The notes beneath the pieces were generated by a model, which worked only from the letters and a program-made list of their open reading frames with translations, ran no database searches and was not told the origin of the DNA. A program made the translations under genes and the position numbers. Source: an uncultured Pseudomonadales bacterium (GTDB lineage: Bacteria; Patescibacteriota; Microgenomatia; UBA1400; MFAQ01). Taken from it: 64,000 nucleotides of DNA. Where the stretch lies: positions 3,573 to 67,572 of the forward strand of contig CAYTOI010000001.1 of the NCBI GenBank assembly GCA_964439805.1, given 5' to 3'. Numbering within the stretch: the first letter of the stretch is position 1; every line of letters begins with the position of its first letter. Positions 1,037-51,710 of this stretch are shown here, piece after piece.

Positions 1037-1062
1037 TTCTATATTCTATATCAACACATTAT

Positions 1063-1095: not shown

Positions 1096-1107
1096 TATAA
1101 TATATCT

Positions 1108-10107: not shown

Positions 10108-10462
10108 ACCTCTTTAAGGCCTCTAGCGTAGATTGAGATAGAAATCCCAATACGGCGTTCATCTTATCCATAGAACCTATTGCCAAGGCTAACCACCCGG
10201 ATACTTTTTTTCTTGAGTCCTCCACTATTAGAAAAGCGTTTTTGACGCCAGATATTTCTAGCTGTTCTCCAGTCACCTCATCTTCAACCAAAATAGTCAC
10301 CGGATTACCACTCTTACCCAAATTAAGATCTCCATTAATCATCATTTCTTGAGGCCAAGTTTTGTTTTGGACAAAATCAGTCTGCTCTTCAGCTACACTT
10401 GAAGCTCTTATCACTCGGTCTTGAAGTTTTTTGATTTTCTTCTTCTTAATCATTCTCCTCAT
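10094..10462 (-). CDS. hypothetical protein
   Basis: 122 aa ORF, Lys-rich N-terminus; no recognisable motif; overlaps recombinase 3' end by 14 nt. Confidence 0.3.
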   Translation of the reverse strand: MRRMIKKKKIKKLQDRVIRASSVAEEQTDFVQNKTWPQEMMINGDLNLGKSGNPVTILVEDEVTGEQLEISGVKNAFLIVEDSRKKVSGWLALAIGSMDKMNAVLGFLSQSTLEALKRFTGR

Positions 10463-10475
10463 TTTATCATTGATG

Positions 10476-10549
10476 TGGGCCGACCTGGATTCGAACCAGG
10501 GACATCGAAGGTATAAGCTTCGCGCTCTAACCAGCTGAGCTATCGGCCC
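10476..10549 (-). tRNA. tRNA-Ile with TAT anticodon (decodes AUA)
   Basis: Reverse complement GGGCCGATAGCTCAGCTGGTTAGAGCGCGAAGCTTATACCTTCGATGTCCCTGGTTCGAATCCAGGTCGGCCCA: 7-bp acceptor, canonical D and T arms (GGTTCGAATCC), anticodon loop CTTATAC. Confidence 0.8.
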
Positions 10550-10611
10550 AAAGTAAAGCTATTATATCAAGCACGTAACAGCAAAACCACGTACTAACCA
10601 CTTTGCACCAA

Positions 10612-22938: not shown

Positions 22939-23253
22939 TCAAATCTTGTACTTAAGAAAAAACTTACTCTCTTTGTCAGAATCCTTATCAATTTCTTCAT
23001 TATCTTGATTCCTAGTGCTCTTGAGTTCTTGATTTCTTATGGGCTTCCCTTCTACCATCGCTTTCATCCAAAATCCCAAAGTCACGATAATGACTACAAG
23101 CATCACCCAAAAAATTACCTTTCTATCTTTAATCTTTTCCTCTTTTGATTTTTTCTTTTTTTCTTTTTTTTTAGGAACTGACTCAAGAGATTCTTCCTCT
23201 TCTTCTGTCATCTCATTGTTTGGAAACTTATTACTCATTATTTTTATATTCAA
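22939..23253 (-). CDS. small hypothetical membrane protein with octamer-repeat-derived segment
   Basis: 104 aa; Lys/Glu-rich N-terminus, one TM, NQELKSTRNQD segment; overlaps dehydrogenase 3' end. Confidence 0.25.
   Translation of the reverse strand: MNIKIMSNKFPNNEMTEEEEESLESVPKKKEKKKKSKEEKIKDRKVIFWVMLVVIIVTLGFWMKAMVEGKPIRNQELKSTRNQDNEEIDKDSDKESKFFLKYKI
23004..23037. repeat. degenerate octamer-repeat copy
   Basis: cttgattcctagtgctcttgagttcttgatttct. Confidence 0.4.
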
Positions 23254-33565: not shown

Positions 33566-34714
33566 ATGACAGATTTAAACAGGTTTAAGTTGGCTTCTAT
33601 CGTAACAGGTTCACCCTTTTGGGTATCAACAATTATCATATATTTCAATTCAAAAGGAATAAACCTTCCAGAGGTTTTTAAATTAATCAGCTTCTATCAA
33701 ATTTCCATAGTTCTACTAGAATACCCAACAGGAGTAATTGGTGATTATTTTTCGCACAAAACATCTATCACTATCGGATATCTCATTGCCGCACTTAGTT
33801 TGTTAATTTCAACTATTCAAATGCCAATTGTTTTTTATTATATTTTTATCTTTATACTTGCCATAGGTGTCACCTTAGTCTCAGGCAGTAACACTGCACT
33901 GCTTCACAAACTTTCAACTGACTTCAAAAAAGACTCATCTTCTTTAAAATCAATTTCCTTAATTTGGTCACTTATTGCAATATCTCTAGGTGGAGTTGTA
34001 GGAAATTACAACATAAATTATCCAACATATCTTTCAGGCACTGCCTTTTTTATTGGTTTTTTGATTATGCTCACCATAAAATACTCTGAAGAAAAAAGCA
34101 AAGAAGGTAATATTTTTAGCAAGGCAAAAGAAGGAATTGTTACAATAAAAAATAATCCTATCTTGTTGTCTGTGTTAACAGTCAATGCAATAATTTCTGG
34201 AATATTCCTTAGCGCCAAATGGTTTTACAACCCATTTTTTCAACAAGCTCAATTAAACATTTATTATTGGGGATTCCTAATTAGTGCAGCCACTTTGTCT
34301 ACAATCTTGGGTGTATATACTTACAAAAAGACTAAAGGTAATAGATTGTTGGTAAATTTTTTATTTTTAATTCTTTTGCTCTTTGTAACTTCGCTTGGAA
34401 TGTTTGGCTATACCAATTTAGCACTAGTTGCCCTATTTGCTGCCCATGCTGTAGGAGGAGGATATATACAAACTCTTCTGGAGGTAGATATCAATAATCA
34501 TATCAATGACTCAACCAGGGCCAGCGTACTTTCATTTGGTAGTTTGCTCATAGGACTTTTTTCTTCAATATATATTTATTTTATAGGTATTGTCTTGAAA
34601 CACTTCAATATATCCTACCTGTTTATATTTACAGGCATTTTACTTTTACTAGTTGGACTACCACTTACAATAAAAGTTAAAAAACATCTCAATCTATCCC
34701 CAGCTCAGCCCTAA
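33566..34714 (+). CDS. MFS-type transporter
   Basis: ~383 aa from internal Met; 10-12 predicted TM helices in two halves. Confidence 0.55.
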   Translation: MTDLNRFKLASIVTGSPFWVSTIIIYFNSKGINLPEVFKLISFYQISIVLLEYPTGVIGDYFSHKTSITIGYLIAALSLLISTIQMPIVFYYIFIFILAIGVTLVSGSNTALLHKLSTDFKKDSSSLKSISLIWSLIAISLGGVVGNYNINYPTYLSGTAFFIGFLIMLTIKYSEEKSKEGNIFSKAKEGIVTIKNNPILLSVLTVNAIISGIFLSAKWFYNPFFQQAQLNIYYWGFLISAATLSTILGVYTYKKTKGNRLLVNFLFLILLLFVTSLGMFGYTNLALVALFAAHAVGGGYIQTLLEVDINNHINDSTRASVLSFGSLLIGLFSSIYIYFIGIVLKHFNISYLFIFTGILLLLVGLPLTIKVKKHLNLSPAQP

Positions 34715-34991
34715 CTTCTTCAGAAATCAGCTCCTTGCTCCAAGGTGGATCCCAAATCAGCTCTACGTGTAAATTCTTTACTTCCTTAATTTCTGCTACC
34801 GCCTTCTTCACCTCACTATCTATTACCGGCGCCAAAGGGCATCCGGGACTTGTGAGGGTAAGGTCTACCTCTGCTTCCCCATCTTCAAAACGAATGTCAT
34901 AAATAAGACCAAGAGACACAATATCAATTCCCAGTTCCGGGTCCAAAACTTTTTTCAACGCCTCCCTAATTTTTTCTTCTACAGTAATCAT
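34689..34991 (-). CDS. Fe-S cluster assembly protein SufT-like (DUF59/MIP18 family)
   Basis: 100 aa; LDPELGIDIVSLGLIY and TSPGCP motifs typical of DUF59. Confidence 0.7.
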   Translation of the reverse strand: MITVEEKIREALKKVLDPELGIDIVSLGLIYDIRFEDGEAEVDLTLTSPGCPLAPVIDSEVKKAVAEIKEVKNLHVELIWDPPWSKELISEEVRAELGID

Positions 34992-35704
34992 TAATAAAAC
35001 TTTTCATAATTAATTAACTCTTCTGGAACTTGCTTTTCTCTAAGTTTATTTTTCATCTGTTCAATCATTTCCGTAGCTCCACACAGGTACCATACGGTAT
35101 TTCCAAAAGACAAGGTTTCCAAATCATCTCCCACATGCCCTGTTTTTCCACTCCACTCGGTTTCTGGTTGAGATAAATATATTTCAAAATCAAAGTTCGC
35201 GTACTTTTCTTTCAAGTCATTCATCTGACTTACCCAGTAAATTCCTCTTTTGTGTCTTAGTCCCCACCACAAAATAATTTTCCCTTTAAAGCCACTATCT
35301 AACAGCTTAGTTATCATTGGTAAAAATGGCGCTACTCCAGTACCTGTTGCCACAAAATAAACTGTTTCTACCGACATTGCTTCTTTCACTTCCAAAACAA
35401 ACCTTCCCAAAAACCCCATTACTTCTACCTCATCCCCCACAACCAAATTGTTTATATATACCGAACCTAAGCCCATTGGGCTGATGTCTACCACCAGCTT
35501 TACAATTTTATCTTTGTATTCCGCTACCGAATAAGATCTTCTTACTCCATTTTCACTAACCTTAAGACTCACATATTGCCCTGGTTCATAACTACAATCC
35601 TCTCCAAGCTCAATATCTATCTCAAAAATATTCTCCGCAATAACAATCTTCTTAATCACTTTACCCATTTGTTTTCTAGGACCAGTTACACTTTTTAAAA
35701 TCAT
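34991..35704 (-). CDS. ferredoxin--NADP reductase-like oxidoreductase (FAD/NAD(P)-binding)
   Basis: 237 aa; RRSYSV (RxYS FAD-binding) and GTGVAPFLPM NAD-binding motifs. Confidence 0.7.
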   Translation of the reverse strand: MILKSVTGPRKQMGKVIKKIVIAENIFEIDIELGEDCSYEPGQYVSLKVSENGVRRSYSVAEYKDKIVKLVVDISPMGLGSVYINNLVVGDEVEVMGFLGRFVLEVKEAMSVETVYFVATGTGVAPFLPMITKLLDSGFKGKIILWWGLRHKRGIYWVSQMNDLKEKYANFDFEIYLSQPETEWSGKTGHVGDDLETLSFGNTVWYLCGATEMIEQMKNKLREKQVPEELINYEKFY

Positions 35705-36417
35705 TTAATCAAAAAATAAGCTATTCCAAAAAGGAAAATAGCCATTAATAATCTAAGCTGTTTATTGTATTTATGTTCCCACTCCTTCATCTCTACCACC
35801 TTTTTACCTCCTGCCATCACAAGCAAAATAACAAGTATTGGCAATATAAAAACAAAGTTATAGTACAAAAAATATATCAGCACCTGCCACATAGGTAGAC
35901 CTGACTTTGCCAAGTAAGAAGTCGTGCCAATATAAACAGGTAGCATACAAGGTGTCGAAAATGCCGTAGTCAATACTCCAACAACGACAGCCATTCCAGA
36001 ACCAGCTTTCATCAGAACCAAGTTAATTTTTTCATAGCCTTTACTACTCATTCTCAGGTGAATCGGAAAGTTATCCCAAAACACATCTTTAAATTGAATT
36101 AGTCCTGCCACTGCCAAAATTCCCGCCATTACATATTTAAATACACTGGCCAACCACAAACGTTGCAAGTAGAATGCCAATCCGTAAAAAAATAATCCCA
36201 AAACCAAATAAGTCACAAAAACACTAGCCAAATAAATCAACCCGTCTCTCAGTATTCTTGAGTTCTTGATTCCTTGAGTTCTTGAGTTCTTTTTTGGATC
36301 GTTTTGCGATCCAAAAACAAGTAAATATCCCAAAAAAGTAATCATCATCCCTATCCCACAGGGATTAAGTCCGTTTACCAAAGCCGCACCTGTAAGGGCT
36401 ACTAAATTTATACTCAT
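35701..36417 (-). CDS. CcdA/DsbD-family thiol-disulfide transporter membrane protein; carries in-frame octamer-repeat insert
   Basis: 238 aa, 6 TM, conserved Cys in TM1 (NPCGIG) and TM4 (TPCMLP); insert KNSRTQGIKNSR in a loop. Confidence 0.7.
   Translation of the reverse strand: MSINLVALTGAALVNGLNPCGIGMMITFLGYLLVFGSQNDPKKNSRTQGIKNSRILRDGLIYLASVFVTYLVLGLFFYGLAFYLQRLWLASVFKYVMAGILAVAGLIQFKDVFWDNFPIHLRMSSKGYEKINLVLMKAGSGMAVVVGVLTTAFSTPCMLPVYIGTTSYLAKSGLPMWQVLIYFLYYNFVFILPILVILLVMAGGKKVVEMKEWEHKYNKQLRLLMAIFLFGIAYFLIK
36257..36290. repeat. 8-bp tandem repeat x4 in frame inside ccdA-like gene
   Basis: cttgagttcttgattccttgagttcttgagttct. Confidence 0.8.
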
Positions 36418-37052
36418 TATTTTTTTAGCAACTCTTTCACCTTATCTAATACAAACGGAACTCCCACCTGTTCTCCGTTTATAAATATTGTTGGAGTTCC
36501 AGAAAGTTGCAAATTAGCAGCCAAATTGGCGTCAGCCTGAACAAAATCAGCCACTTCTTTTGACTTCATTGTCGCTTCAAATTTTGTTCCATCTAACCCG
36601 ATACTCTTTGCATACTCCACAAACAAGAGTTCAGGATTTTTGGATTCAGACCACACATCTTGTTTTTCAAACATCACTTCCATCATCTCCCAACCCTTAC
36701 CAAGCACTCTCCCAGCTTCTACTGCTTTTGCCGAAATAACCGAATATTTATGTACATTAGCAGGAAGAGGAAAGTGCCTCATCACAGTTTTTACTCCAGA
36801 CATTGTATCCAAATCTTTAAGAGCAACTTTTGCCACCTTACAAGAAGGACACTGGATGTCAGAAAAACTTACCACTGTAACTTTCGTCTCACCATTTTCT
36901 CGAACAAATCTTGCACCTTCCAAAAGTACGTTTTGGTCCACAGTTGTCGCTGAAGTTGTATTGCTACTCATTTTTGTTAAGCCGAAAATTGCAGCAATTA
37001 CCAGCACCACACTTCCCCCAATTATCAATAAAGTATTTTTTATATCAGTCAT
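36417..37052 (-). CDS. thioredoxin-fold thiol:disulfide oxidoreductase (DsbA-like), membrane-anchored
   Basis: 211 aa; N-terminal TM; CPSC active site. Confidence 0.7.
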   Translation of the reverse strand: MTDIKNTLLIIGGSVVLVIAAIFGLTKMSSNTTSATTVDQNVLLEGARFVRENGETKVTVVSFSDIQCPSCKVAKVALKDLDTMSGVKTVMRHFPLPANVHKYSVISAKAVEAGRVLGKGWEMMEVMFEKQDVWSESKNPELLFVEYAKSIGLDGTKFEATMKSKEVADFVQADANLAANLQLSGTPTIFINGEQVGVPFVLDKVKELLKK

Positions 37053-37438
37053 TTTTTTGTCGCTTTTAATAACGCTCTATAAGCCAAAGTAGCACACTTC
37101 ATTCTACCTGCATTTATCTCTCCACCCATCAATTCTACAATTCCCTCCTCACTAATTTTTTCAATCTCAGAAATTTTCATCCCTATTACTTTTTCCGAAA
37201 GCATACTAGCAGCGGCTGTTGAAATTGCACACCCTACCCCTCGCCACCTAATTTCTTTGATTACCAGCTCTTCATCATCTTGAGTTCTTGATTCCTTGAT
37301 TCCTTGAGTTCTAATCTGTATTTGTATTACATCCCCACAACTAGAATTCGACTCATTTATAGTCACATCCGCCCCCTCCATCTCCCCAAAATTTCTAGGG
37401 TTTTTGTAGTGATCAATTATTTCATCGCGGTAGTCCAT
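37049..37438 (-). CDS. sufU: Fe-S cluster scaffold SufU/NifU-like; carries in-frame octamer-repeat insert
   Basis: 129 aa; conserved Cys in SCGD, GCAIS, KCATLA; insert RTQGIKESRTQDDEE. Confidence 0.8.
   Translation of the reverse strand: MDYRDEIIDHYKNPRNFGEMEGADVTINESNSSCGDVIQIQIRTQGIKESRTQDDEELVIKEIRWRGVGCAISTAAASMLSEKVIGMKISEIEKISEEGIVELMGGEINAGRMKCATLAYRALLKATKK
37279..37312. repeat. 8-bp tandem repeat x4 in frame inside sufU
   Basis: cttgagttcttgattccttgattccttgagttct. Confidence 0.8.
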
Positions 37439-37441
37439 GGT

Positions 37442-38734
37442 CTATATAAATACTTTTGGTACTTCTTTAATTTTTTCTACCAAATAGTTAATTTCTTCTT
37501 TTGTATTGTAAACATAAAAAGTGGCTCTCACCATAGCAGGAATCCCAAAACTTGTAACAAGTGGCGCAGCACAATGCTGACCGGACCGAACCGCAATTCC
37601 AAAATTATTTAGCACCTGAGCCACATCATGAGAGTGCACCCCTTTTACATTAAAGGCCAACGCCCCACCTCTTTCTTCTGGGTCTCTCACTCCATAAACC
37701 TCCACCAAACCTTCATCCTCCAGCACTTTAAATTTTTCCAAAGCATAACCAATTAATTCTTTCTCGTGTTCTCTCACATTGTCCATACCCAAGTTTTCCA
37801 AATAATCCACTGCCGCTCCCAAACCAATTATTCCAGCAATGTCAGGTGTCCCTGCTTCAAACTTACTAGGAATCTCTGCCCAGGTAGTATTTTCCAGCCG
37901 TACTTCTCCAATCATGTCTCCTCCGTACAAAAATGGGTCCATTTTGTTTAGTAAATCTTTCTTTCCCCAAAGTACTCCCGTCCCTGTTGGTCCCAGCATT
38001 TTGTGACCAGAAAAAGCAACAAAGTCAACTGATAATTTTGTAACATCCAATTTCATATGTGGCACCATTTGGGATGCATCCAAAACAATTACAGCTTCAG
38101 GATTTTTCGCTTTTACTTTCTCTACCAACATTTTAATATCTGGCAAAGTTCCAATTGCATTACTTGCTCCAGTCAAAGCAAACAACCTCACTTTCCCATC
38201 AGCAATCAAATCATCCATACTACCAATTAACACATTATCTTGAGTTCTTGAGTTCTTGAGTTCTTGAGTTTTTTCGACCAACTTTCCTTTTTGGTCGACT
38301 TCAACCACCCTAAATTCTGCACCTTTTTCTTTGCAAAGCACCTGCCAAGGAACAAAGTTTGAGTGATGCTCCAATCGCGTCACCAAAACTGCGTCCCCCT
38401 CTTTAATATTTTTCTTTCCCCAGGAATACATCACCAAGTTAAGCGATTCGCTAGCGTTTCTCGTAAAGATTATTTCTTCAGTTCGTCCTCCAATAAACTT
38501 CGCAACTTTTTCTCTGGCCTCGTCTACCATTTTTGTAGACTCTACTGACATGTCGTAAACTCCTCGGTGAATATTGGCATTATTGTTTCTATAATAGTCA
38601 TCCATTGCTCTCAAAACACTCTCAGGTTTCTGACTTGTGGCTCCACTATCCAAATAAACCAAATCTTGCCCATTAACTTTGCGCTTCAAAATCGGAAAAT
38701 CCTGCCTTATTTTATTTACGTCTAACATGTTCAT
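37442..38734 (-). CDS. sufS: cysteine desulfurase SufS; carries in-frame octamer-repeat insert
   Basis: 430 aa; PLP-lysine SGHKMLGPTG; C-terminal catalytic Cys region; insert KTQELKNSRTQD. Confidence 0.85.
   Translation of the reverse strand: MNMLDVNKIRQDFPILKRKVNGQDLVYLDSGATSQKPESVLRAMDDYYRNNNANIHRGVYDMSVESTKMVDEAREKVAKFIGGRTEEIIFTRNASESLNLVMYSWGKKNIKEGDAVLVTRLEHHSNFVPWQVLCKEKGAEFRVVEVDQKGKLVEKTQELKNSRTQDNVLIGSMDDLIADGKVRLFALTGASNAIGTLPDIKMLVEKVKAKNPEAVIVLDASQMVPHMKLDVTKLSVDFVAFSGHKMLGPTGTGVLWGKKDLLNKMDPFLYGGDMIGEVRLENTTWAEIPSKFEAGTPDIAGIIGLGAAVDYLENLGMDNVREHEKELIGYALEKFKVLEDEGLVEVYGVRDPEERGGALAFNVKGVHSHDVAQVLNNFGIAVRSGQHCAAPLVTSFGIPAMVRATFYVYNTKEEINYLVEKIKEVPKVFI
38239..38272. repeat. 8-bp tandem repeat (perfect CTTGAGTT x4) in frame inside sufS
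   Basis: cttgagttcttgagttcttgagttcttgagtttt. Confidence 0.85.
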
Positions 38735-39423
38735 ATTGTACTTAGTTCTTTGTCGCTTTTTAAATAATTCTTTATATCAACTTTTTTCATCGTTCCAAAA
38801 TCACCATAGTCTATTAGATCTATTCCAAAAACTTCTCTCCCTAATTTCTCCGCAATTATCTGGTTCCCTATTAAATTACAATGCAAAAAATCAATGTCTC
38901 CTGGTTTCATTTTCCACTCAATATTTTCCCAAAGATATTTATAACTAAAAACCTTACTCAAGTCATATTTTCCAAACTCCTCATACATATCCACAAACTG
39001 CAAATCTAAATCCACTGACACTTTTTTATAAATATCTCTTATGGTTTCCAACTTTTTACTTACCAATTCATTAATTGTCTTGTATGTCGACCACAAAACT
39101 ACTTTTGATCCTGTACTTTTTATCTTTAAAACAAGTTCTTTGAGCATCTCCTCAACATTACCTTCTAGCTCCAAATGATTAAATCCAAGCGAAAGTATAA
39201 CAACGTCTGGCTTAAATCTACCTATTAAAAACTCAAAACTATTCAAGAAAAAAGGTATAGTTGCCCCATCTTTTCCAGAATTAATTAATTTGGTTTTCCA
39301 ACCACTAATTTCATCTCCCTGCCTCAAGCTAAAATCCAACCAATCAAACCAGTTTGGATGACACCACTCCATACTCGTTGTACTATCTCCAACACAAACT
39401 ATGGTTTTTTGATCGCTATTCAT
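38731..39423 (-). CDS. SGNH/GDSL-family hydrolase
   Basis: 230 aa; GDSTT block I motif, GxND-type downstream blocks; embedded in suf operon. Confidence 0.6.
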   Translation of the reverse strand: MNSDQKTIVCVGDSTTSMEWCHPNWFDWLDFSLRQGDEISGWKTKLINSGKDGATIPFFLNSFEFLIGRFKPDVVILSLGFNHLELEGNVEEMLKELVLKIKSTGSKVVLWSTYKTINELVSKKLETIRDIYKKVSVDLDLQFVDMYEEFGKYDLSKVFSYKYLWENIEWKMKPGDIDFLHCNLIGNQIIAEKLGREVFGIDLIDYGDFGTMKKVDIKNYLKSDKELSTI

Positions 39424-39428
39424 CTTCT

Positions 39429-39932
39429 TTATTTTACCCCCAAAAAACCTTTAATAATCAAATTTTCTGCCTCAGCTCTGTTTATCCCCCTTGTCTCCAA
39501 ATAAAACAATTGGTCCTCATCTATTCTCCCTACGCTAGCCGAATGACTTGCTTTAACTTCATTATTTAATATCTCTAGTTCCGGCTCAGCTACCGCCATA
39601 CTTTTATCATCAAGTAGTAGTAGCTTCATCGACAAAAAACTATCACTTTGTTTTGCCCCTTCTGCAATTTTCACCAATCCCTTAATTTTTACCCTTGCTC
39701 CACCTCTTACCACCCCTTTTACATCAACTCTGCACTTTGTTTTCCCTACTTTGTGTTCGGACAAAAGATTGATTACATAGTCCCCCTCAGTCTCTGCCAC
39801 AACAACACCAAGTAGCTCTTTCTCTTCCCCTTTGTCATTCATAACCACTTTAAAGTCATAGACCCCAGGTCTTTCAATTACAAACCTCTCAATATCTTGA
39901 GTTCTTGAGTTTTGGAAGTTTTGAGTTTTCAT
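39429..39932 (-). CDS. SufD-like Fe-S assembly protein (short, C-terminal region only); N-terminus made of octamer repeat
   Basis: 167 aa; C-terminal DEDQLFYLETRGINRAEAENLIIKGF matches SufB/SufD C-terminal signature; starts MKTQNFQNSRTQD. Confidence 0.55.
   Translation of the reverse strand: MKTQNFQNSRTQDIERFVIERPGVYDFKVVMNDKGEEKELLGVVVAETEGDYVINLLSEHKVGKTKCRVDVKGVVRGGARVKIKGLVKIAEGAKQSDSFLSMKLLLLDDKSMAVAEPELEILNNEVKASHSASVGRIDEDQLFYLETRGINRAEAENLIIKGFLGVK
39896..39932. repeat. octamer-repeat tract spanning the sufD-like start codon
   Basis: cttgagttcttgagttttggaagttttgagttttcat. Confidence 0.7.
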
Positions 39933-39934
39933 TT

Positions 39935-41365
39935 TTATCCCACACTCCCTTCCATCTCCATATTAATAAGCCTATTCATTTCTATAGCGTACTCAAAAGG
40001 AACTTCCTTCATTACCGGATCCAAAAATCCGTTAACTATCATGCCTTCCGCTTCGTGTTCAGAAAGTCCTCGAGACATTAAATAAAACAGTTGTTCTTCA
40101 GAAATTCTACTTACCACCGCCTCGTGCTCCAAAATCGACTGGCTCTCCATAATTTTATTTGTAGGGTAAGTGTCAGATCGAGACAGTTCGTCCAGTATCA
40201 GCGCGTCACAAACCACTTTAGATCGCGCATTGGTTGCTCCCTTAGCAATATGAACCAAGCCTCTATAAGTAGATCTTCCCCCATTTTTACTAATCGACTT
40301 GGATAAAATTTGTGAAGTTGTTTCTGGAGCCAGATGAATCATTTTTGCCCCAGTATCTTGATGCTGATCTGCTCCAGCCCAAGCGATAGAAAGAATTTCT
40401 CCTCTAGCTTTTCTACCCGCCAGAATACAAGCCGGATACTTCATCGTTAGCTTGCTTCCCAAATTTCCATCTATCCATCTCATCTCACCTTCTTCTTCCA
40501 CATAAGCTCTTTTGGTAACCAAGTTGTAAACATTTTTATACCAATTCTGAACTGTGGTGTACTGAACCTTAGCCCCTTTCTTTACAAATATTTCTACCAC
40601 AGCAGCGTGAAGTGATCCAGAAGAATATGCGGGAGCAGAACAACCCTCTATGTAATGGAGCTTACTCCCCTCATCGGCAATGATTAAAGTTCTCTCAAAC
40701 TGACCAGCGTTTTCACTATTTATTCTAAAATATGTTTGCAAAGGAAGACCAACATCAACTCCTTTGGGAACATAAATAAAAGACCCTCCAGACCAAGCGG
40801 CCGTATTCAAAGCAGCAAGTTTATTGTCTCCCATCGGAATTACTTTTCCAAAATATTCTTTTACCAACTCTGGGTATTGTTTCAACCCCTCATCCATTCC
40901 CAAAAATACTACCCCTTTTTTTGAAAGGTTAGCTTTTAGCGAGCCATATATAACCTCGGAATCATACTGACTCTTAACTCCAGCCAAAGCTTCTCTCTCG
41001 GCTTGTGGCACACCAATCTTTTCAAATGTTGCTTTTATCTCTGCGGGTACATCGTCCCAAGTTTTTCCGGCATGATCCAAGGGCTTCAAATAATAAAATA
41101 TGTTTTGAAAATCTATTGCCGACATATCCCCACCCCAAGTAGGCATTGGTTTTTCAAAAAATATCTTTAAGGCTTTAAGTCGCAGATTAAGCATCCATTC
41201 TGGTTCATTCTTCATCGCCGAAATCTCCCTTATTCTGGCTTCATCAACACCTTTAGTAGAGCGATATGAATACTCAAAATCATCAGTGTGTCCAAGAGAA
41301 TAAGAGTCGCCAATTCCCCCAATATTATTCGCCTCTTCAATTTTCTTTTTGGCAAACCTACTCAT
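39935..41365 (-). CDS. sufB: Fe-S cluster assembly protein SufB
   Basis: 476 aa; SufB-specific N-terminal region and C-terminal [25 protein letters not shown]. Confidence 0.85.
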
Positions 41366-42107
41366 ATTTTTTATATCCAGTTTTTCCCAAACTATCTATT
41401 AATTCAGCGCCACCCTCATCAACCACCAGACCTTTCTTCAAAACCACCACCTTATCAACATTCACCAAGTTCAACATTTTTTGGTAATGAGTAATAAGTA
41501 TCACGGTCATTCCAATTTCTTTGCTAAGTTTATTAATTTCTTCAGCCACCAAATTAAGAGCATCTAGATCCAACCCACTATCTGTCTCATCCAATATAGC
41601 CATTTTTGGTTTTAAGACTCTCATTTGCAAAATCTCAATCTTCTTCTTTTCACCACCACTAAACCCCTCATTTATTCCACGAGTCAGCAAATCATCACTA
41701 ACTCTAAGCTCCTTGGCAATCGCCTCTACTTGTCTCTTAACATCTATCGCTTTGACAATCTCTCCTTTTGCTCTAAGAGAAGCGACTAGTAATTCTTTTA
41801 CTGTCACTCCAGGGACCGAAACTGGATATTGAAAAGCCATAAAGACTCCCTCTTTTGCTCTCTCGTCAGGGGTCATCTCGTTTATTTTTTTACCCATCCA
41901 AAAAATTTCTCCTGATGTTATTTCATAGGCTGGGTTTCCCATTATGGTATTGGATAGAGATGATTTTCCTGAACCATTTGGACCCATCAAGGCTACAATC
42001 TTTCCTGCCTCAATCTCCAAATTTATCCCATTCAATATTTCTTTCCCCTCAACCTTCACCTTTAAATTCTTAATTATCAGTAAATCATTATCTTGAGTTC
42101 TTTTCAT
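41358..42107 (-). CDS. sufC: Fe-S cluster assembly ATPase SufC
   Basis: 249 aa; Walker [14 protein letters not shown] signature LSGGEKKK, Walker [11 protein letters not shown]; starts MKRTQDND derived from octamer repeat. Confidence 0.9.
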
Positions 42108-42139
42108 AATTTTGAGTTTTTGATTTTAGAGTTTTTTAC
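42092..42139. repeat. octamer-repeat-like tract spanning sufC start codon and 5' leader
   Basis: cttgagttcttttcataattttgagtttttgattttagagtttttt. Confidence 0.55.
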
Positions 42140-42522
42140 TTAATCAAGTCTTCCAATGTGTATTTATCCAATACTTTATTAATATCCTCAGTCAACCTTC
42201 CCATAAAATCCTGCTGAGTACAATCTCCCTCAACTGGACAACCTCCACAACAAACCGGTTCTACTTCACCCTCAATAGCCTCTAGAGCCTCTCTAATCTG
42301 GATCTCTTTGGGATCATAGTTCAAAGCAAATCCACCACCCTTACCCTCTTTGGAGTTCAAAATACCCGCTTCGATAAGTGGAGTGGCAATCTTAGCCATA
42401 AATGCCCTAGGCATGCCTAAATCAGCCAGATCCTTAAGGGACACACGACCTCCTCGGCCTTTTTCAGCCAGTATTGATAGCAAAGATAGTCCGTAATCAG
42501 CCCGTTTGGTAAGTGTAAACAT
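42136..42522 (-). CDS. Rrf2-family transcriptional regulator (IscR/SufR-like) with Cys cluster
   Basis: 128 aa; wHTH N-terminus, CCGGCPVEGDC cluster; leads suf operon. Confidence 0.8.
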   Translation of the reverse strand: MFTLTKRADYGLSLLSILAEKGRGGRVSLKDLADLGMPRAFMAKIATPLIEAGILNSKEGKGGGFALNYDPKEIQIREALEAIEGEVEPVCCGGCPVEGDCTQQDFMGRLTEDINKVLDKYTLEDLIK

Positions 42523-43763: not shown

Positions 43764-45158
43764 TTATAACTCAATTTGCATATTTAAGTTTGGCATTATT
43801 ACATCGATGTCGCCCAATTCGTTTTTAATCTTTTCTTTCAATACAAGCCTTGGCAAATCTTCACCATGAATCAAAACCACCTTCTTTAACCCCTTTATTT
43901 TGCCAACCCAAGACATCAATTGTTCTTGGTCAGCGTGTGAGCTCATGCTCTTTATTTCCTCCACCTGAGCCCTTACCTCAATATGATTTCCCCAAATATT
44001 AATATTTTTCTCACCATCTTTAATTTGTCTTCCAAGTGTGCCGACCGCCTGATAACCCACAAAAACAATTATAGTTTTTGGGTCTTCCAAGTAGTTTATT
44101 GCGTGATGAATTATTCTCCCCCCTGTCATCATTCCACTTCCAGCCACAATTACTTTGGTGCCTGAATAGTTTTTTATTTGTTTACTCTTTTCTACAGTGT
44201 CACATACCACTAGTCCAGGAAAATCAAATGGATCATCAGTTTTTACCTGATCCTTTAATTTTTTACTAAAAAACTCTGGGTAATCTTTAAATATTTCTGT
44301 TGCCTTTATAGCCATCGGAGAATCCAAAAACACCGGTGTATCTTCTCTTATCTCCTTTTGTTTTTTCAGCTGGTCAAACAAATACAAAACTTCTTGAGCT
44401 CTTTCTATAGAAAAGGTAGGTATCATTACCACTCCACCCACTCGCTCCGCTTCTTGGACAATCTCCGCAATCCTTTCTGCTTCATTTCTAACTCCATGGA
44501 CCTCATCCCCATAAGTCGACTCTAGTAAAGTGAAATCTGCTTCTTTGAAGGTTTCTGTTGGGAGTAGTAATGGCTCTGGAGTATTTCCCAGGTCACCACA
44601 AAAAACAATTTTTTTACCACTAGAAATTTCTTCTACCAAAATACTACTAGAACCTATTATGTGCCCCGCATCATACATAGTTAATCTAAAGTCCCCTACC
44701 GTAAAAGGCACATGATAATCCACTATTTGAACTTTTTTCAAAAAACTCTGAACATCATCTTCTGTGTACAAAGTGTCAGTAGCATCTTCTGCTGCAATTT
44801 TCGCTGAGTCCATCAAAACCAATTCTGTTAAGGCTTTTGTAGGGGCGTTCATAAAAACAGGCCCATCAAATCCATACCTGACCAATGTCGGAAGTCTTCC
44901 ACAGTGATCCAAGTGCGCATGAGTAAGAACAACAGCATTTAAACTCCCAAAATCAATCTCTGGTTTTGCAAAATTTAATTTATCATCCTCCTTTAATCCC
45001 TGAAACATTCCACAATCCACCATTATTCCCGTACTCTTTCCGGTAAGTAAATAACAAGAACCAGTTACTGTCCCCGCTGCACCCAAAAACTTTAGTTTCA
45101 TATCATCCAGTGTATCAGAATGAGCCTCGTCATTGCGAGGAACGAAGTGACGTGGCAA
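43764..45158 (-). CDS. metallo-beta-lactamase/beta-CASP family ribonuclease (RNase J/CPSF-like)
   Basis: HAHLDHCG (HxHxDH) motif, beta-CASP motifs downstream; true start probably internal Met MKLKFLGAAG. Confidence 0.7.
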   Translation of the reverse strand: MPRHFVPRNDEAHSDTLDDMKLKFLGAAGTVTGSCYLLTGKSTGIMVDCGMFQGLKEDDKLNFAKPEIDFGSLNAVVLTHAHLDHCGRLPTLVRYGFDGPVFMNAPTKALTELVLMDSAKIAAEDATDTLYTEDDVQSFLKKVQIVDYHVPFTVGDFRLTMYDAGHIIGSSSILVEEISSGKKIVFCGDLGNTPEPLLLPTETFKEADFTLLESTYGDEVHGVRNEAERIAEIVQEAERVGGVVMIPTFSIERAQEVLYLFDQLKKQKEIREDTPVFLDSPMAIKATEIFKDYPEFFSKKLKDQVKTDDPFDFPGLVVCDTVEKSKQIKNYSGTKVIVAGSGMMTGGRIIHHAINYLEDPKTIIVFVGYQAVGTLGRQIKDGEKNINIWGNHIEVRAQVEEIKSMSSHADQEQLMSWVGKIKGLKKVVLIHGEDLPRLVLKEKIKNELGDIDVIMPNLNMQIEL

Positions 45159-45181
45159 TCTAAATATAATAGAATGGAGTC

Positions 45182-45963: not shown

Positions 45964-45999
45964 TTTTGAGTTTTTGAGTTCTTGAGTTCTTGAGTTTTT
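45964..45999. repeat. octamer-repeat tract in 5' leader immediately upstream of prmC start
   Basis: ttttgagtttttgagttcttgagttcttgagttttt then ATG at 46000. Confidence 0.75.
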
Positions 46000-47085: not shown

Positions 47086-47910
47086 CTAAATATTTGTAAA
47101 GAAATTGGAATTAACGGGTGCCTGCTGGTTTTGCATTCCCTGGGACTTCGCACCCATACTGGAGCTTACCAACATAAGAGCACGCGTAATGCCGCCCATC
47201 GACCTTTCAACTGTAACAATGTTTCCGTCAGGAATTCCAGCATCTAGTGCCACCTGACGAAAATCTGTTTCATTACCAATGCCTACAAAAGCTATTGTAA
47301 AGTGAGGCTTGCTGTTAAGTTCGCCTAACAGACGACGTACGTCATCATTGGTCCGAACCGCGACAATGTTGGGGTGATATTCACGACCATCCGAGAGGAT
47401 CACTGTTACTTCCTGAACCCCAGTCGCCCCGTAGCTAAAAGCTGAAGCACCAAAGGTTGAGGTCGCTATGACACCGTCATAAATGCCTTCATAAAGTGGC
47501 GTCCAACCATCAGGAATATAATCCACAGATGTTAGCTTTTGGCAATCCTGAACATGAACAAAATCGCGGATAACGCGAACATTTTTCATTCCACTCAAAA
47601 TACTAAAAACGGTAATCCGCACATAAATCTCTTGCCCCGTCTTTTTTCTCATCTTTTCAATATCTTCAAGCATCGCATTTACAGCATTGATCACCACATC
47701 TTCATAGCCAGACAACGATCCTGTAACATCAATCACCAAATTGAAAACCAAAGGAAGCATCGACTCCATAAGAGGAATTTGAACCCCAATAGTTTTTGGT
47801 ATGCCACTGCCGTGTAAATTTGCAAGCAATGTTTGCGATGATGCTGGAGTCAAATGTCCACTTGCTGCAGCCTGTTGAATAGCCAAAGAAACTTGATCTT
47901 GATCGCTCAT
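47086..47910 (-). CDS. von Willebrand factor A domain protein (TerY-like)
   Basis: 274 aa; MIDAS-type DVTGSLSG motif; Rossmann-like alternating pattern; GC-rich island. Confidence 0.65.
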   Translation of the reverse strand: MSDQDQVSLAIQQAAASGHLTPASSQTLLANLHGSGIPKTIGVQIPLMESMLPLVFNLVIDVTGSLSGYEDVVINAVNAMLEDIEKMRKKTGQEIYVRITVFSILSGMKNVRVIRDFVHVQDCQKLTSVDYIPDGWTPLYEGIYDGVIATSTFGASAFSYGATGVQEVTVILSDGREYHPNIVAVRTNDDVRRLLGELNSKPHFTIAFVGIGNETDFRQVALDAGIPDGNIVTVERSMGGITRALMLVSSSMGAKSQGMQNQQAPVNSNFFTNI

Positions 47911-47962
47911 GTTAATCTCCTTTTTATTGGGAGAGAATCAGATTCTCTCCCAAAAATAGTTT

Positions 47963-48940
47963 TTATCCGATCGGATCAGTGCTCTTAACGAGCTTCAATC
48001 CGTAAACTGTGGACAAAGCCTCAAACGCCTGCTTCGCCATATCTTCAAAACCACCAACAGGAGAAGTGCAATCTTCCATAATTCGGATGCGGGACAAAAT
48101 ATCCGATGCGTCATTCTTAAAATAACGAATAATGGAATAAATTGTTTCCAGTACACAGTGGCTACTCGCCTCGCCAGCAATGTAGATCAGATCACAGGTT
48201 TTCAAATCCAATAGAAAATCTTCATCGATACCTGAGTCTTTATCGCCAGCAAATTCTACTTCGCCTTCAACAATAGAGTAGTTCTCGTAAACTTCTCCAG
48301 CGCCCTTAACCTTAAACTTCGGCTGAGATTTACGAGCAATTGCATGAGCAAAAATTGCTTCATACAAAGTCGGTTCAATGGCTTGTTCTGGCGTTCCAAG
48401 CATGCAGTGATTGGCCCAAACCATCAAGTTCTTCTTTTCAAAATCCCCTGCACCAGTGCTGGCTTTTTTACCAAACTGCTCCAACATGGTTAAGTAATAC
48501 TCACTCCAGAGCATACTCTTACCCTTTTTGTATTCATACTGAAAATCAAAGATCGCCTTAACTTTTTTATCCTTCAGATCTTGCAATGTCACAACCGTAA
48601 AGTCGTTCAGGGGTTGACCCTTATCATCGACCCACCAATCCGGGAAAAAGATCTGAAATGGCAAATGGGAATCCATACTTACCGCGATCCGGGTAATTTT
48701 CGCCATATTCTTCAAAATCCAATCGACGATCCGGATCATGTCTTCAATTGCTCCAGGAACACACAGATCACGACCTTTTTCAATAAAGCCGAGCTGAGGA
48801 TCAACCAAAAGGAGCATCACTTTCAACTTGTCTTTCGAGTAGTTTTGAAGGTTTAAAGATCTCCCGTATTTCTTGGCCATTTTCAAATCAGGGTAACGCA
48901 AAGTTCCAACCAAATTCGGATCATAAAATTTTGTATTCAT
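47963..48940 (-). CDS. isochorismatase-family cysteine hydrolase (nicotinamidase-like)
   Basis: 325 aa; LLLVDPQLGF (catalytic Asp region) and AGEASSHCVLET (catalytic Cys). Confidence 0.65.
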   Translation of the reverse strand: MNTKFYDPNLVGTLRYPDLKMAKKYGRSLNLQNYSKDKLKVMLLLVDPQLGFIEKGRDLCVPGAIEDMIRIVDWILKNMAKITRIAVSMDSHLPFQIFFPDWWVDDKGQPLNDFTVVTLQDLKDKKVKAIFDFQYEYKKGKSMLWSEYYLTMLEQFGKKASTGAGDFEKKNLMVWANHCMLGTPEQAIEPTLYEAIFAHAIARKSQPKFKVKGAGEVYENYSIVEGEVEFAGDKDSGIDEDFLLDLKTCDLIYIAGEASSHCVLETIYSIIRYFKNDASDILSRIRIMEDCTSPVGGFEDMAKQAFEALSTVYGLKLVKSTDPIG

Positions 48941-48962
48941 GTTTTCTCCTTTTTATTATTTT

Positions 48963-50837
48963 TTAGATTACCAGGTAATTTACCTGTTTCTCACGAATTA
49001 CCAAAAAGTGTTTTCTACCACCTAGGTGAACCAACTTGTCATTAGCCTCTACCAATCTTTCTGTTTTTGGAACCAAAGTAAAAGTATTTTTTCTCAAGTC
49101 CTCCACTATCAAACCAGAATCATCTTGCCAATATATTTCCCCGTCTTCATAGGCAGTTCTGTGAACCTCAGATGCCGGCAGTTTTGCCAACAAGTGAGCG
49201 CTCTCAAAAATCGACTGTCCAAACAGATCAAAAATCTCAGTCAAAACAGTCATTTTCCCGTTTCGGTTAACAACTCTACGCAAACAAACCGTCTCAGTAC
49301 CGAACAACGCAACTGTCTCTCGCAGAGAATCTCCACTATTGAGTTCAGCTTGTTTCAAACTAAAACGTCTTTCTTTGTGAATTAATTGAAAATGGTATTT
49401 GTTAAACAAACGAGAAAGGGTCAATATCTTCTGTCCTGTCGTATCTGACCAAATCCAAGTTTCTTGTTTTGATACCGTAGCTGGCAAAACTTTCTCTAAC
49501 ATTCTGCCATTACTTACATAACCTAGTAGTAACTTGCTTCCAGACTGTCTTAATAAACCCAGTGAAGTTCCTCGAAAAACAGTTTGCCTGTTTCCCAAAA
49601 ACATTTCTGAGCTGCTAGTAATCCACGACTGACCAGGAACACTTATGTGAGTCAGGTATATCATTTCCGTATCAATCTGATTAACAGCAAGGTATTCGTC
49701 CCCCACCATTTCAAATCGATAAGAAAAATTCAAATCCAAGTCCACAAAAACCTTTACGGGTTTACCGTTTCCAGGTCGAATTGTCAAATAATAACCACTT
49801 TTTTCTCGAGATACCACATAAAGATTACCAGACTGAAAACGAGCAAATAGTATTTCTCCATTGGTTTTTATCAGGTTTTCATATAAATATGTCGGCTGAA
49901 AATTAACCATTGGAGTTTTATATGTACATTTCGGACAGGCCTTTCTTGTTTTTGGATAAAACAAGCCACAGCTTCCGCACTCAATCAAAGAAGATTGATA
50001 TGCATCTAGCATTGTTAATTGTATTTCCTCATACTGATGCTTTTCAAAAACATTTGCAAATTTTTCTAGCAGTTCATCCGAAACAGAATCCGGATGATTT
50101 GCAAGCGATGTTTGCTGAACACCTTTATTTAAATACCAAATACCTTTTGCGGCCCTCTCTCGAAAATCCAAGTACTTCGGGTGAATCTGCGAATAGTGGT
50201 GAATATTAAACAAGCTCCAAAAGAGCATCGTCCAGTAGCCATACCAATCAGACTCTTCCGTATACTTAACTCTTCCTGAATTTGCTTGAGAATATAGGTC
50301 CGGACAAAGAAAATACTCAGTCCAAACAGGGCACCTTATCCCATTAATTTGCCATGCATCTGTGTCATACCAATAAACGTCTACACCTCGTTTTCCAAAA
50401 ACAAAAGATGCGTTTCTACCAGACACGTCTCCAGCGATTATGTTGTTTTTATGAATGATCGACAAATCCCGACCAACAATTTTCATAATTTCTACAACAG
50501 TTGGTGTAAAAATACGCAAAGTTGTCCTCAGAGATTTGTTAAACAAAACTCCAATCTCACGAAAACTACTAGGCATTTCTACCATCCCGTAACCCCTAAG
50601 CTCTCCTCCACCGTTTGGTCGAGTACTCAAAGGAATCTTGGGAAACAAAAAACGATCCGGTAAATTTGGTTTATTTTTTAACAAATATTGTATTTTTTGC
50701 AATTGGTCTGGCTCAATACTCTTTAAAACTTTTACCGCCCAGCCACTTTGTCTTACCACTACGGCTTGGCCTCCATCTCCCAAAGTAACACCATTGTTTA
50801 AAAAAGGGTCACTACCCAAGTACAACCTGTCAGTCAT
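48963..50837 (-). CDS. Ser/Thr protein-kinase-like protein with central zinc ribbon and large C-terminal domain
   Basis: 624 aa; Gly-rich loop LGDGGQAVVV, Lys AVKVL, catalytic-loop-like IIHKNNIIAGDVSGRN, then CGSCG...CPKC zinc ribbon. Confidence 0.55.
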   Translation of the reverse strand: MTDRLYLGSDPFLNNGVTLGDGGQAVVVRQSGWAVKVLKSIEPDQLQKIQYLLKNKPNLPDRFLFPKIPLSTRPNGGGELRGYGMVEMPSSFREIGVLFNKSLRTTLRIFTPTVVEIMKIVGRDLSIIHKNNIIAGDVSGRNASFVFGKRGVDVYWYDTDAWQINGIRCPVWTEYFLCPDLYSQANSGRVKYTEESDWYGYWTMLFWSLFNIHHYSQIHPKYLDFRERAAKGIWYLNKGVQQTSLANHPDSVSDELLEKFANVFEKHQYEEIQLTMLDAYQSSLIECGSCGLFYPKTRKACPKCTYKTPMVNFQPTYLYENLIKTNGEILFARFQSGNLYVVSREKSGYYLTIRPGNGKPVKVFVDLDLNFSYRFEMVGDEYLAVNQIDTEMIYLTHISVPGQSWITSSSEMFLGNRQTVFRGTSLGLLRQSGSKLLLGYVSNGRMLEKVLPATVSKQETWIWSDTTGQKILTLSRLFNKYHFQLIHKERRFSLKQAELNSGDSLRETVALFGTETVCLRRVVNRNGKMTVLTEIFDLFGQSIFESAHLLAKLPASEVHRTAYEDGEIYWQDDSGLIVEDLRKNTFTLVPKTERLVEANDKLVHLGGRKHFLVIREKQVNYLVI

Positions 50838-51593
50838 TTATACCTCCAATCTTTTCAGAAAAATCACAGAAACATTGTCTTTTGTATCCGAACGAATTGT
50901 TGAAATTCTATTAAGACACATCTGCAAACTAAAATTTGAATTTGAATATGCATTTAGCTCATCCATTAAATGAGGGTAAGAAGATAAACCGTCCGAAGAT
51001 ACTCCTGCAACTCTTACAGAATCAGCAGAAAGAATCTCCGTCTCGAATCCATTTGGCAACAAAGATTGTATCTCTGCCCCAACTTCTCCATAACTCTCAT
51101 ATAGGTGATACGCAGGGTATCGAGGTCTGTTTAAACTTTCGGGGTTTAAAACTTTATGAACAGAATCATTTAAATAACTCAATCCGTCTCCCGCCCAAAA
51201 GTAAACAATCTCTGACTCATCAGCCAAAATACCAATCGTAGTACACATCAAATACAAAGAAATAAAGTCTAGTTTTTCATCATTATCACTCAAAAACTGA
51301 GACTCAACTTGCCACCAAAGATAATCAATGTATTCTGGAAAAAGTAACGAAGGAATTAAGCTTGGCTTTACACCTTCAAGTAACATTGCTCGAGATCTAC
51401 GAATCAAAAAAAGGTTGGACAAATGAGCTCCAACTTCGGACTTTAAATTTAATTTTAACAGTCCATGGCAGCCATCGTTAATAATACCAGCAGCCACAAA
51501 ACTATTTGTCCAGACACTTGCAACGTCTTGGTTATTCCTGCCTTCATGAAAATACGTCAAACCTTGTGCTGAAGCCGATGTAATCTTCCACAT
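50838..51593 (-). CDS. PP2C-family Ser/Thr protein phosphatase
   Basis: 251 aa; GRNNQDV...INDGCHG, FWAGDGLSYL, VSSDGL motifs matching PP2C metal-binding blocks; AGGAG RBS 5 nt upstream. Confidence 0.75.
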   Translation of the reverse strand: MWKITSASAQGLTYFHEGRNNQDVASVWTNSFVAAGIINDGCHGLLKLNLKSEVGAHLSNLFLIRRSRAMLLEGVKPSLIPSLLFPEYIDYLWWQVESQFLSDNDEKLDFISLYLMCTTIGILADESEIVYFWAGDGLSYLNDSVHKVLNPESLNRPRYPAYHLYESYGEVGAEIQSLLPNGFETEILSADSVRVAGVSSDGLSSYPHLMDELNAYSNSNFSLQMCLNRISTIRSDTKDNVSVIFLKRLEV

Positions 51594-51661
51594 ACCATCT
51601 CCTTATATTTAATCTTAATGTCAAGGTTCTAATACCCCACACTTAGTGTATTTATGACACC

Positions 51662-51689
51662 ATTATACCTCACAACTCTACTGTGTCAA
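51662..51689 (-). promoter_or_regulatory. consensus sigma70-type promoter driving the island operon
   Basis: Minus strand reads TTGACA-cagtagagttgtgagg(16 nt)-TATAAT, ~70 nt upstream of PP2C start. Confidence 0.55.
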
Positions 51690-51710
51690 GACGGGTATTA
51701 TAACCTCAAT

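Follow-up and report, generated by a model that had tools for sequence, protein, structure and literature searches.

The suf operon of the 64,000-nucleotide (nt) stretch analysed here (the window; contig CAYTOI010000001.1, recorded as an uncultured Pseudomonadales bacterium) carries short octamer-repeat tracts inside conserved genes and over the first codons of sufC and of a short sufD-like gene, which raises the question of what these tracts are, how they came to lie there and what they do to the operon. A preliminary description of the locus listed five of them and considered that they may provide translation-initiation regions, modulate expression through copy number or have removed the N-terminus of sufD. 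The reading preferred here, with a probability of roughly 0.68, is that the suf tracts, both fresh and decayed, are members of one very small dispersed repeat family of the Collierbacteria group within the candidate phyla radiation (CPR; Patescibacteria), in which they are tolerated, probably selfish passengers related by templated copying. In the following, L-numbers denote loci from other genomes and P-numbers denote homologous proteins.

All five suf tracts were located where the preliminary description had placed them and in a single orientation, reading CTTGAGTT on the plus strand and AACTCAAG in the coding direction of the genes, which lie on the minus strand (Table 1). A two-unit probe with at most two mismatches gave 19 matches in the window, all on one strand, against 0.08 expected in shuffled sequence, and neither the probe nor a repeat search found an inverted partner of the tracts in the window. 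The window holds at least 11 tracts, more than the five of suf, and eight of the 11 lie inside open reading frames (ORFs).

The module is about 36 nt or 12 codons long and comprises 4 to 4.5 copies of the octamer on the sense strand. Among about 85 tracts surveyed in the window and in low-GC (Collierbacteria/Woesebacteria-type) loci, four full units was the commonest length (50 of 85), as it was in the window tracts, which had been found without the probe used for foreign loci; the 5' end of the array is usually flanked by AAG and the 3' end frequently by A(T)AATG or (G)ATAATG, which together with the four-unit mode gives the typical insert its size. The usual peptide is (K/R)TQELKNSRTQD. Because three octamers make 24 nt, each sense frame encodes a stop-free cyclic permutation of the hydrophilic NSRTQELK, and the antisense strand contains TGA in all frames; copies within genes can therefore persist only in the sense orientation, only at a length that is a multiple of three and only at tolerant sites, namely loops, N- and C-termini and intergenic spacers. 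No antisense genic tract occurs in the low-GC loci, and the reading phases of 47 distinct genic tracts are distributed 31:13:3, the rarest being the phase that turns the common 3' end AGATAA into a stop. Intergenic copies in the low-GC loci face both ways, so that a tie between orientation and transcription was rejected; the uniform orientation in the window is explained by gene orientation and the antisense stop codons.

The window was compared with five syntenic loci. The closest, L003, has 93% DNA identity to the window, and the others are ranked by the identity of their SufD to that of the window: L002 (85%), L116 (79%), L113 (73%) and L114/L115 (69%; Collierbacteria RIFOXYD1_FULL_40_9). 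Tract presence varies at all five sites among the window, L003, L002, L116, L113 and L114, and L003 lacks the tracts of both sufS and sufC. Variation across strains, which the preliminary description had proposed to look for, is thus real, consisting of presence or absence at sufC and sufS and of sequence differences at sufD relative to this 93%-identical locus. The length differences are 24 nt (SufD, and SufS of P0140), 21 nt (SufC) and 48 nt (SufS), all multiples of three. The same tract sequence was recovered in independent assemblies (NCBI, Logan and ENA) at orthologous in-frame positions; among them, Logan contig L001, from a short-read assembly of the same organism, is 100% identical to window positions 38270-41885, encodes the same SufD and ends at position 38270, exactly at the perfect sufS tract, as would be expected of a 33-nt dispersed repeat in a short-k-mer assembler. 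Judged from these alignments, the tracts are insertions that are gained and lost between relatives.

In sufS, the insertion amounts to 48 nt or 16 amino acids (aa), VEKTQELKNSRTQDNV, lies in a loop with the perfect four-unit tract as its core, and is apparent against B. subtilis SufS (5xt5), 412-aa relatives, L003, L116, L113 and L114. Among 56 SufS homologues, the same loop in the window clade bears a variant unit in P0122, a decayed tract in P0125 and a tract contracted by 24 nt in P0140; the loop tract also occurs in a 436-aa clade of 72-75% identity, and it is absent from 412-aa sister sequences and 426-428-aa outgroups. In the AlphaFold2 model of SufS (mean predicted local distance difference test score, pLDDT, 87), the tract forms a coil of pLDDT 77-78 between flanks of 93-96, and the fold is predicted to be kept despite the insertion. 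The sufU tract adds an 11-aa loop that is a gap in IscU (2qq4); it is absent from L116 and L113 and decayed in L114, and L002 has a different, palindromic mini-repeat in frame (NWIPGQARNDK). The tract in the CcdA-like gene adds about 10 aa in a loop, is shared by L002 in a decaying state, is A-rich and decayed in L114 and is absent from L113. The two fpg tracts lie within, or replace, poorly aligned linker segments.

As separate observations on these proteins, the SufS clade falls into loop-length classes of 410-414, 426-429 and 436 aa in an alignment over window residues 150-180, and the 430-aa window SufS resembles the tract-bearing 436-aa form minus eight residues (TENGLKVR), which suggests that the loop may have undergone serial deletions. 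The fpg tract at 2853-2886 (residues ~146-157) takes the place of the linker bearing the LGPEPL motif that is usually conserved in solved Fpg structures.

As had been described, the first codons of both sufC and the sufD-like ORF consist of tract sequence, with different consequences for the two genes. Tract-free SufC proteins (L116, L113, L114 and L003) start with M-L-(E/K/Q)-I-K/T, for example MLEIKNLKV (241-242 aa); SufC of L002 has a longer tract extension, MKTQELKNFRTQDKE, and that of the Woesebacteria metagenome-assembled genome (MAG) L037 has the extension MKTQELKKSRTQDNE. Since the ancestral sufC ATG is lost in the window, the tract-adjacent ATG is the sole in-frame start, and the match to the NCBIfam SufC model (TIGR01978) begins at residue 10. 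On this comparison, the sufC tract supplies a start codon shifted upstream and lengthens the predicted N-terminus of SufC by 8-9 aa. The spacer between rrf2 and sufC, filled by a decayed tract in the window, is 4 nt in L002 and holds a different hairpin repeat in L003, and a Shine-Dalgarno sequence was not seen upstream of sufC in any relative compared. L113 shares with the window both the ATG of sufD and the Shine-Dalgarno-like GGGAGTGTGGGATAAA before it, and its protein begins MKTQDDKVF; a codon alignment of the window gene with it (MKTQD-DKVF) places a 24-nt (8-aa) insertion after codon 4. The proposal that the repeat supplies or replaces initiation regions thus stands for sufC, with its tract-adjacent ATG.

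The sufD-like ORF is indeed 167 aa long with only the C-terminal part of the family, and it reaches 142 bits against TIGR01981 (cutoff 222), matching model positions 120-260 of 275 only. Compared with the full-length SufD of the SufBC2D complex, it shares the C-terminal part of the SufBD core and its place after sufC and sufB, but the N-terminal region is missing, as are the first ~94 core positions, and its score stays below the NCBIfam cutoff; this short form extends through the lineage. A homologue search gave 173 matches, nearly all of 151-176 aa and most without a tract; several of the short homologues are named SufD-family and come from Patescibacteria, Microgenomates or Collierbacteria, and the tract-free relatives have an equally short SufD. 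Short SufD is therefore an old lineage feature to which the repeat merely adds residues. Truncation of sufD by the repeat was rejected on the homologue search and the syntenic loci: the preliminary description had itself named a short sufD in relatives lacking the repeat as speaking against a repeat-driven loss of the N-terminus, and such relatives are what was found. The N-termini differ among relatives, with MKTQEHKNSRTQD and MNRTQELKTVTAGRQDSRTQD as examples and no tract in P0005-P0008, and the sufD tract is kept in L003 with five base differences and is longer in P0002 and L002.

Two kinds of evidence point to copying between sites. A unit with two base changes, GAATCAAG, recurs 17 times, only as unit 2 or 3 of four-unit tracts, and is commoner than either single-base intermediate; the exchange of precisely this unit separates the orthologous tracts of L046 and L058, and likewise those of L062 and L092. 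In addition, the SufS proteins of the window and of UBA12020 (L075) have 74% of residues in common, and their genes 70% of bases but only 43% of third codon positions; even so, their tracts are identical at 33 of 33 bases (11 codons), for which the probability under neutral drift at that third-position identity is about 1e-4. Either copying has therefore refreshed the tract, or it was inserted anew, or its nucleotide sequence is under constraint. In the proposed sequence of events, copies would be related through templated copying, by template switching or short-patch gene conversion from one tract to another, and in-frame contraction and expansion may add to the variation. In some lineages the tracts would then decay towards A-rich sequence, and selection would remove antisense, out-of-frame and disruptive copies, leaving those in loops, gene termini and intercistronic spacers. 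Most likely, then, the tracts are neutral or selfish passengers rather than regulators, and the shifted sufC start is a by-product.

The octamer is not confined to the window. An exact 24-mer occurs in at least 109 stretches of species-representative genomes; among the matches listed, several per genome occur in at least five Collierbacteria assemblies and in a Woesebacteria MAG, and several per genome also in Acidobacteriota (including a 1.59-Mb contig), Chthoniobacterales, Verrucomicrobiota, Bacteroidales and Omnitrophota. Outside Collierbacteria and Woesebacteria the arrays are mostly intergenic, and in MAGs of Acidobacteriota and Chthoniobacterales they often form inverted pairs around a conserved core of ~40 nt, gaaccaacagtc.cgcgccgaggtccgcatcgcagc; the resulting hairpins of ~130 nt, usually located just 3' of a stop codon, are very stable, with folding energies of -78 kcal/mol (z = -8.9) and -58 kcal/mol (z = -6.2). 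Transitions to further units of period 8, such as AAGTCGAG, AGCTCAAG and AACTCCGG, are seen in the arrays of high-GC genomes. An Rfam scan at gathering thresholds of eight repeat-bearing loci from other genomes identified no family, the octamer sequence was absent from a full-text literature library, and a search on CPR together with octamer repeats yielded nothing relevant. Phages were dismissed as vectors, with one exact match among 2.9 million viral contigs.

A point on the records themselves may be added. Several tract-bearing MAGs are titled "uncultured Pseudomonadales" (L070, L016, L018, L030, L031, L035 and others; CAZUFH01, CAZPFY01, CAYHNG01 and CAYSAM01) and have a GC content of 0.38-0.47 and tract flanks identical or orthologous to those of Collierbacteria loci, L070 for instance matching L075 of UBA12020. 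Given the low GC content and the Collierbacteria-like flanks, these titles are probably wrong.

Several points weigh against the passenger family as formulated. Neither a target-site duplication, on comparison of the filled sufS site of the window with the empty site of L003, nor terminal inverted repeats were found, and Pfam searches of 30 further window ORFs returned no reverse transcriptase and no transposase, only an XerC-like recombinase and a VirD4-like protein. Many intergenic copies, in low-GC and high-GC loci, lie within 1-20 nt (often <10 nt) of the stop of a same-strand gene, which a purely neutral model does not predict; a stop supplied by the element was considered as the cause and dropped, there being no excess of T at position -3 of the 5' flank. 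The 33 of 33 bases conserved in SufS could equally reflect selection on nucleotides or RNA, implying a function, and the octamer arrays of Acidobacteriota and Chthoniobacterales fall outside the explanation in its current form. Finally, the probe for foreign loci fixed 22 of 24 bases and freed just the two variant-unit positions, which biases the variants and lengths obtained, although the window tracts, found without it, show the same variant-unit pattern; the genes in foreign loci are simple longest-ORF calls and hence approximate.

A more far-reaching reading is an undescribed sequence-specific process that would write (AACTCAAG)n into Collierbacteria genes, or refresh it there, as a stop-free, unstructured 12-codon cassette and that could also build the hairpin stems of Acidobacteriota and Chthoniobacterales. 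Such a process, in which a dedicated enzyme might carry out templated insertion or repair or short-patch conversion might be unusually efficient, seems unlikely, though with a chance worth keeping in view; if it were real, very small mobile sequences of a single class would span several phyla and reshape essential proteins as well as start sites.

The main rival is a selected function, in which the tract, as an A-rich leader or early coding stretch without structure, would aid translation start in genomes that make weak use of Shine-Dalgarno sequences, or would serve as a post-stop spacer or as a flexible hydrophilic linker. The RNA of the tracts is unstructured, the window tracts folding no better than shuffled sequence or worse (sufS: minimum free energy -1.3 kcal/mol, z = +2.26; sufC start: z = 0.27), and an unstructured leader would suit the lack of a visible Shine-Dalgarno sequence before sufC in all relatives compared. 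Tracts also recur at gene starts (sufC of the window, L002 and L037; sufD) and within 10 nt after stops, a comparable four-unit heptamer family of Xanthomonas and Nostoc likewise lying near the stop of the upstream ORF (PMC4692102), and the old SufS site has kept its 33 bases. Set against this, each of the five sites lacks the tract in close relatives, many copies are decaying, most lie deep inside genes, where a leader role cannot apply, and intergenic copies occur in both orientations, so that a functional role is regarded as doubtful. An internal promoter made by the tracts was rejected separately, since a promoter scan gave no match at them.

According to a third alternative, the tracts are phase-variable contingency loci, in which 8-nt slippage at the sufC and sufD starts and in sufS, sufU and the CcdA-like gene switches or tunes operon expression. 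The unit is not a multiple of three, two tracts overlap first codons and tracts differ between close relatives; however, every length difference preserves the frame (24, 21 and 48 nt), no array exceeds 4.5 units, the starts of sufC and sufD retain just 1.5-2 intact units, and the mode stays at four units. All of this happens in housekeeping genes, among them fpg and the gene for the 5'-3' exonuclease elsewhere in the window, and no frameshifted allele was seen in a look that did not extend to the fragmented gene calls of L003. As the differences among relatives are all multiples of three, phase variation is without support and very improbable, and the suggestion of the preliminary description that copy-number change could modulate expression is unsupported in view of the same frame-preserving differences, short arrays and housekeeping hosts.

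Independent origins, with each tract arising by local replication slippage from a chance proto-repeat and no copying between sites, are strongly disfavoured. The SufD start of L113, ATG AAG ACT CAA GAC, contains a single unit that may have seeded the 24-nt expansion, and L038 shows a 24-nt higher-order duplication; but the same octamer, modal length and interior two-base variant recur in dozens of unrelated genes of several genomes, single-unit steps would frameshift the host gene, and two adjacent units are expected by chance only 0.08 times per window. Assembly or sequencing artefacts, to which the Logan contig end at the sufS tract might be ascribed, have a negligible chance in view of the identical sequence in that independent assembly and the diverged, orthologous in-frame tracts in other samples and species.

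Five of the 11 tracts lie within the 6.8 kb of the operon, which is nominally significant if the operon is named beforehand (binomial P = 0.0037); with free choice of the interval, the scan statistic gives P = 0.12, and a rival cluster of four tracts lies at 1-5 kb of the window. The portrayal of the operon as a hotspot is accordingly weak, nominally significant for the pre-named operon alone, and a suf-specific hotspot was dropped. The apparent clustering is more likely due to sites within one lineage that permit insertion, namely loops, the ends of genes and spacers, than to a property of suf.

Among described systems, the closest in kind are the four-unit heptamer families of Xanthomonas and Nostoc. 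These GGGAATC-type and cyanobacterial short tandemly repeated repetitive (STRR) sequences are dispersed, are biased to about four units and occur in coding sequence less than expected (Rehm et al. 2015, PMC4692102), and their intergenic copies lie far nearer the stop of the upstream ORF than the next gene and are stabler than classical slippage-prone repeats (PMC4692102). The octamer tracts resemble them in the short non-triplet tandem unit, the number of about four units, the dispersed copies, the proximity to upstream stops and the relative stability. They differ in having 8 rather than 7 nt, in lying mostly in frame inside genes where the heptamers avoid coding sequence, and in their CPR hosts; since 4.5 units make 36 nt, a multiple of three, life within genes is allowed, and since the octamer is not G-rich, a G-quadruplex is impossible, unlike in the heptamers.

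Rickettsia palindromic elements (RPEs) are selfish elements found in frame in protein-coding genes (review PMC10969869; also PMC1779305). The octamer tracts share with RPEs a dispersed family of near-identical copies within one genome and in related ones, in-frame positions in unrelated conserved housekeeping genes that have tract-free orthologues, a conserved peptide at positions that would be compatible with the fold and a small, reduced host genome. RPEs are ~100-150 bp long and palindromic, whereas the tracts are ~36 nt, tandem and without a hairpin; a second, palindromic mini-repeat, seen in L002 SufU, in an L003 spacer and at window 45129-45159, comes closer to RPEs. Contingency loci of Haemophilus, Neisseria and Campylobacter are long perfect arrays in surface, virulence and restriction-modification genes. 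The tracts have in common with them a non-triplet tandem unit, which occupies first codons (sufC, sufD) and a short upstream spacer (rrf2-sufC), and unlike them are short, of fixed length genome-wide, housed in housekeeping genes and different among relatives only in frame-preserving ways. Mycobacterial interspersed repetitive units (MIRUs) have units of 40-100 bp and are intercistronic, overlapping flanking stop and start codons; the tracts in the operon spacers rrf2-sufC (window) and sufB-sufD (L002) are comparable, but they are shorter and also occur inside conserved protein loops. A miniature inverted-repeat transposable element (MITE) or other transposon-derived element was rejected, as there are no inverted termini and no visible target-site duplication at sufS between the window and L003. 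A BpuEI-type CTTGAG site, a DNA-uptake sequence and a Chi-like signal, considered as further candidates, would not fit fixed-length tandem arrays inside genes.

If the preferred reading is correct, streamlined CPR genomes of ~1 Mb tolerate roughly a hundred tract copies inside essential genes, a figure extrapolated from the 11 copies in 64 kb. Such tracts inflate or shift gene models (the SufC start, N-terminal "extensions"), break short-read assemblies, as in the Logan contig at sufS, push family scores under curated cutoffs, as for SufU, and can pass for truncations or regulatory switches. They also amount to a natural experiment, testing where conserved enzymes can accommodate loops 12 residues longer, and raise the question of how 36 nt are copied between sites without recognisable transposition machinery. 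The interest of the family thus lies in its intragenic life in CPR genomes, in its spread and in the recurrence of the octamer across phyla.

Table 1. Coordinates of the repeat tracts, suf operon genes and related repeats (window positions unless a locus is given)
Feature	Position	Strand	Remarks
Tract in CcdA-like gene	36255-36291	-	KKNSRTQGIKNSRI
Tract in sufU	37278-37312	-	RTQGIKESRTQD; variant unit twice
Tract in sufS	38238-38270	-	perfect 4-unit tract (4.1 copies)
Tract in short sufD, codons 2-13	39895-39927	-	MKTQNFQNSRTQD
Tract in sufC, codons 2-6	42091-42104	-	MKRTQDND
sufC start region	42107-42105 (start); 42091-42107 (region)	-	ATG, then contracted tract and two further codons; extension MKRTQDND
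Decayed tract, whole rrf2-sufC spacer (28 nt)	42108-42135	-	sense AAAAACTCTAAAATCAAAAACTCAAAATT; Tandem Repeats Finder period 8 at 42110-42136
Tract in fpg	2853-2886	-	RTQELKESRTQ
Second tract in fpg, decayed	3040-3073	-	within ~25 aa unaligned to solved Fpg structures
Tract in 5'-3' exonuclease gene	4972-5007	-	exactly 12-aa insertion RTQELKDSRTQD; gap versus Pol I 6vde
Intergenic tract, decayed	1062-1096	-	3' end ATAATG
Decayed tract in small membrane-protein-like ORF	23019-23038	-	IRNQELKSTRNQDNEE
Intergenic tract	45964-45999	-	antisense to both flanking plus-strand genes; stops 1 nt before ATG at 46000
Sigma-70-like promoter match	42562-42534		TTGAAT-17-TATAAT; best match, just upstream of rrf2
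rrf2-family regulator, first operon gene	42136-42522	-	Pfam Rrf2 5e-26; TIGR00738
sufC, 249 aa	41358-42107	-	TIGR01978, 289 bits (cutoff 213)
sufB, 476 aa	39935-41365	-	without tract; TIGR01980, 703 bits
Short sufD, 167 aa	39429-39932	-	Pfam SUFBD_core 95-232 of 232
SGNH/GDSL hydrolase	38731-39423	-	Pfam Lipase_GDSL_2
sufS, 430 aa	37442-38734	-	TIGR01979, 529 bits
sufU, 129 aa	37049-37438	-	Pfam NifU_N; TIGR01994 85 bits, just below cutoff 92.5
DsbA-like gene	36417-37052	-	
CcdA-like membrane protein, 238 aa	35701-36417	-	weak Pfam SfLAP, 35.4 bits (cutoff 35)
FNR-like gene	34991-35704	-	
FeS_assembly_P gene	34689-34991	-	
Inverted-pair hairpin loci	L053:3668-3783; L047:4032-4152; L110:6848-7006		also L100, L077, L015, L041
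Palindromic mini-repeat, window	45129-45159		upstream of beta-CASP gene
Palindromic mini-repeat, L002	L002:~12050-12080		sufU loop
Palindromic mini-repeat, L003	L003:~2880-2910		rrf2-sufC spacer

The operon is a tightly packed minus-strand array, and the gene order given previously, rrf2-sufC-sufB-short sufD-SGNH-sufS-sufU-DsbA-like-CcdA-like, is borne out by Pfam and NCBIfam; it continues beyond the CcdA-like gene with the FNR-like and FeS_assembly_P genes. The CcdA-like protein has no NCBIfam match, and its label rests on two xPC motifs in the sequence. SufB and its L002 counterpart share 93% identity and align without insertion or deletion. The SGNH/GDSL gene between sufD and sufS is absent from L002, L003, L113, L114 and L116 and, on this synteny, is a strain-specific operon insertion outside the repeat family; L114 has a different 164-aa ORF between sufS and sufU.

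Elsewhere in the window, an XerC/D-like tyrosine recombinase adjoins a VirD4/TraG-like coupling protein at 9241-12933; no other recombination or mobility gene was seen in the window, and the surrounding 31 kb (5-36 kb) has one tract. The small ORF at 22939-23253, which has no family match, combines a Lys-rich N-terminus, one hydrophobic helix and its decayed tract, and sits between convergent PBP and 2-hydroxyacid dehydrogenase genes. Five successive minus-strand ORFs of 251-624 aa at 47086-52988 are without a Pfam match. The palindromic mini-repeat family has the form …ATTCC…GGAATGAC / …CGCAATGACG; the beta-CASP ORF at 43764-45158, with TTG as the listed start, reads through its window copy (MPRHFVPRNDEAH…), and because the orthologues are 445-448 aa long, the true start is probably the ATG ~19 codons downstream (MKLKFLGAAG).

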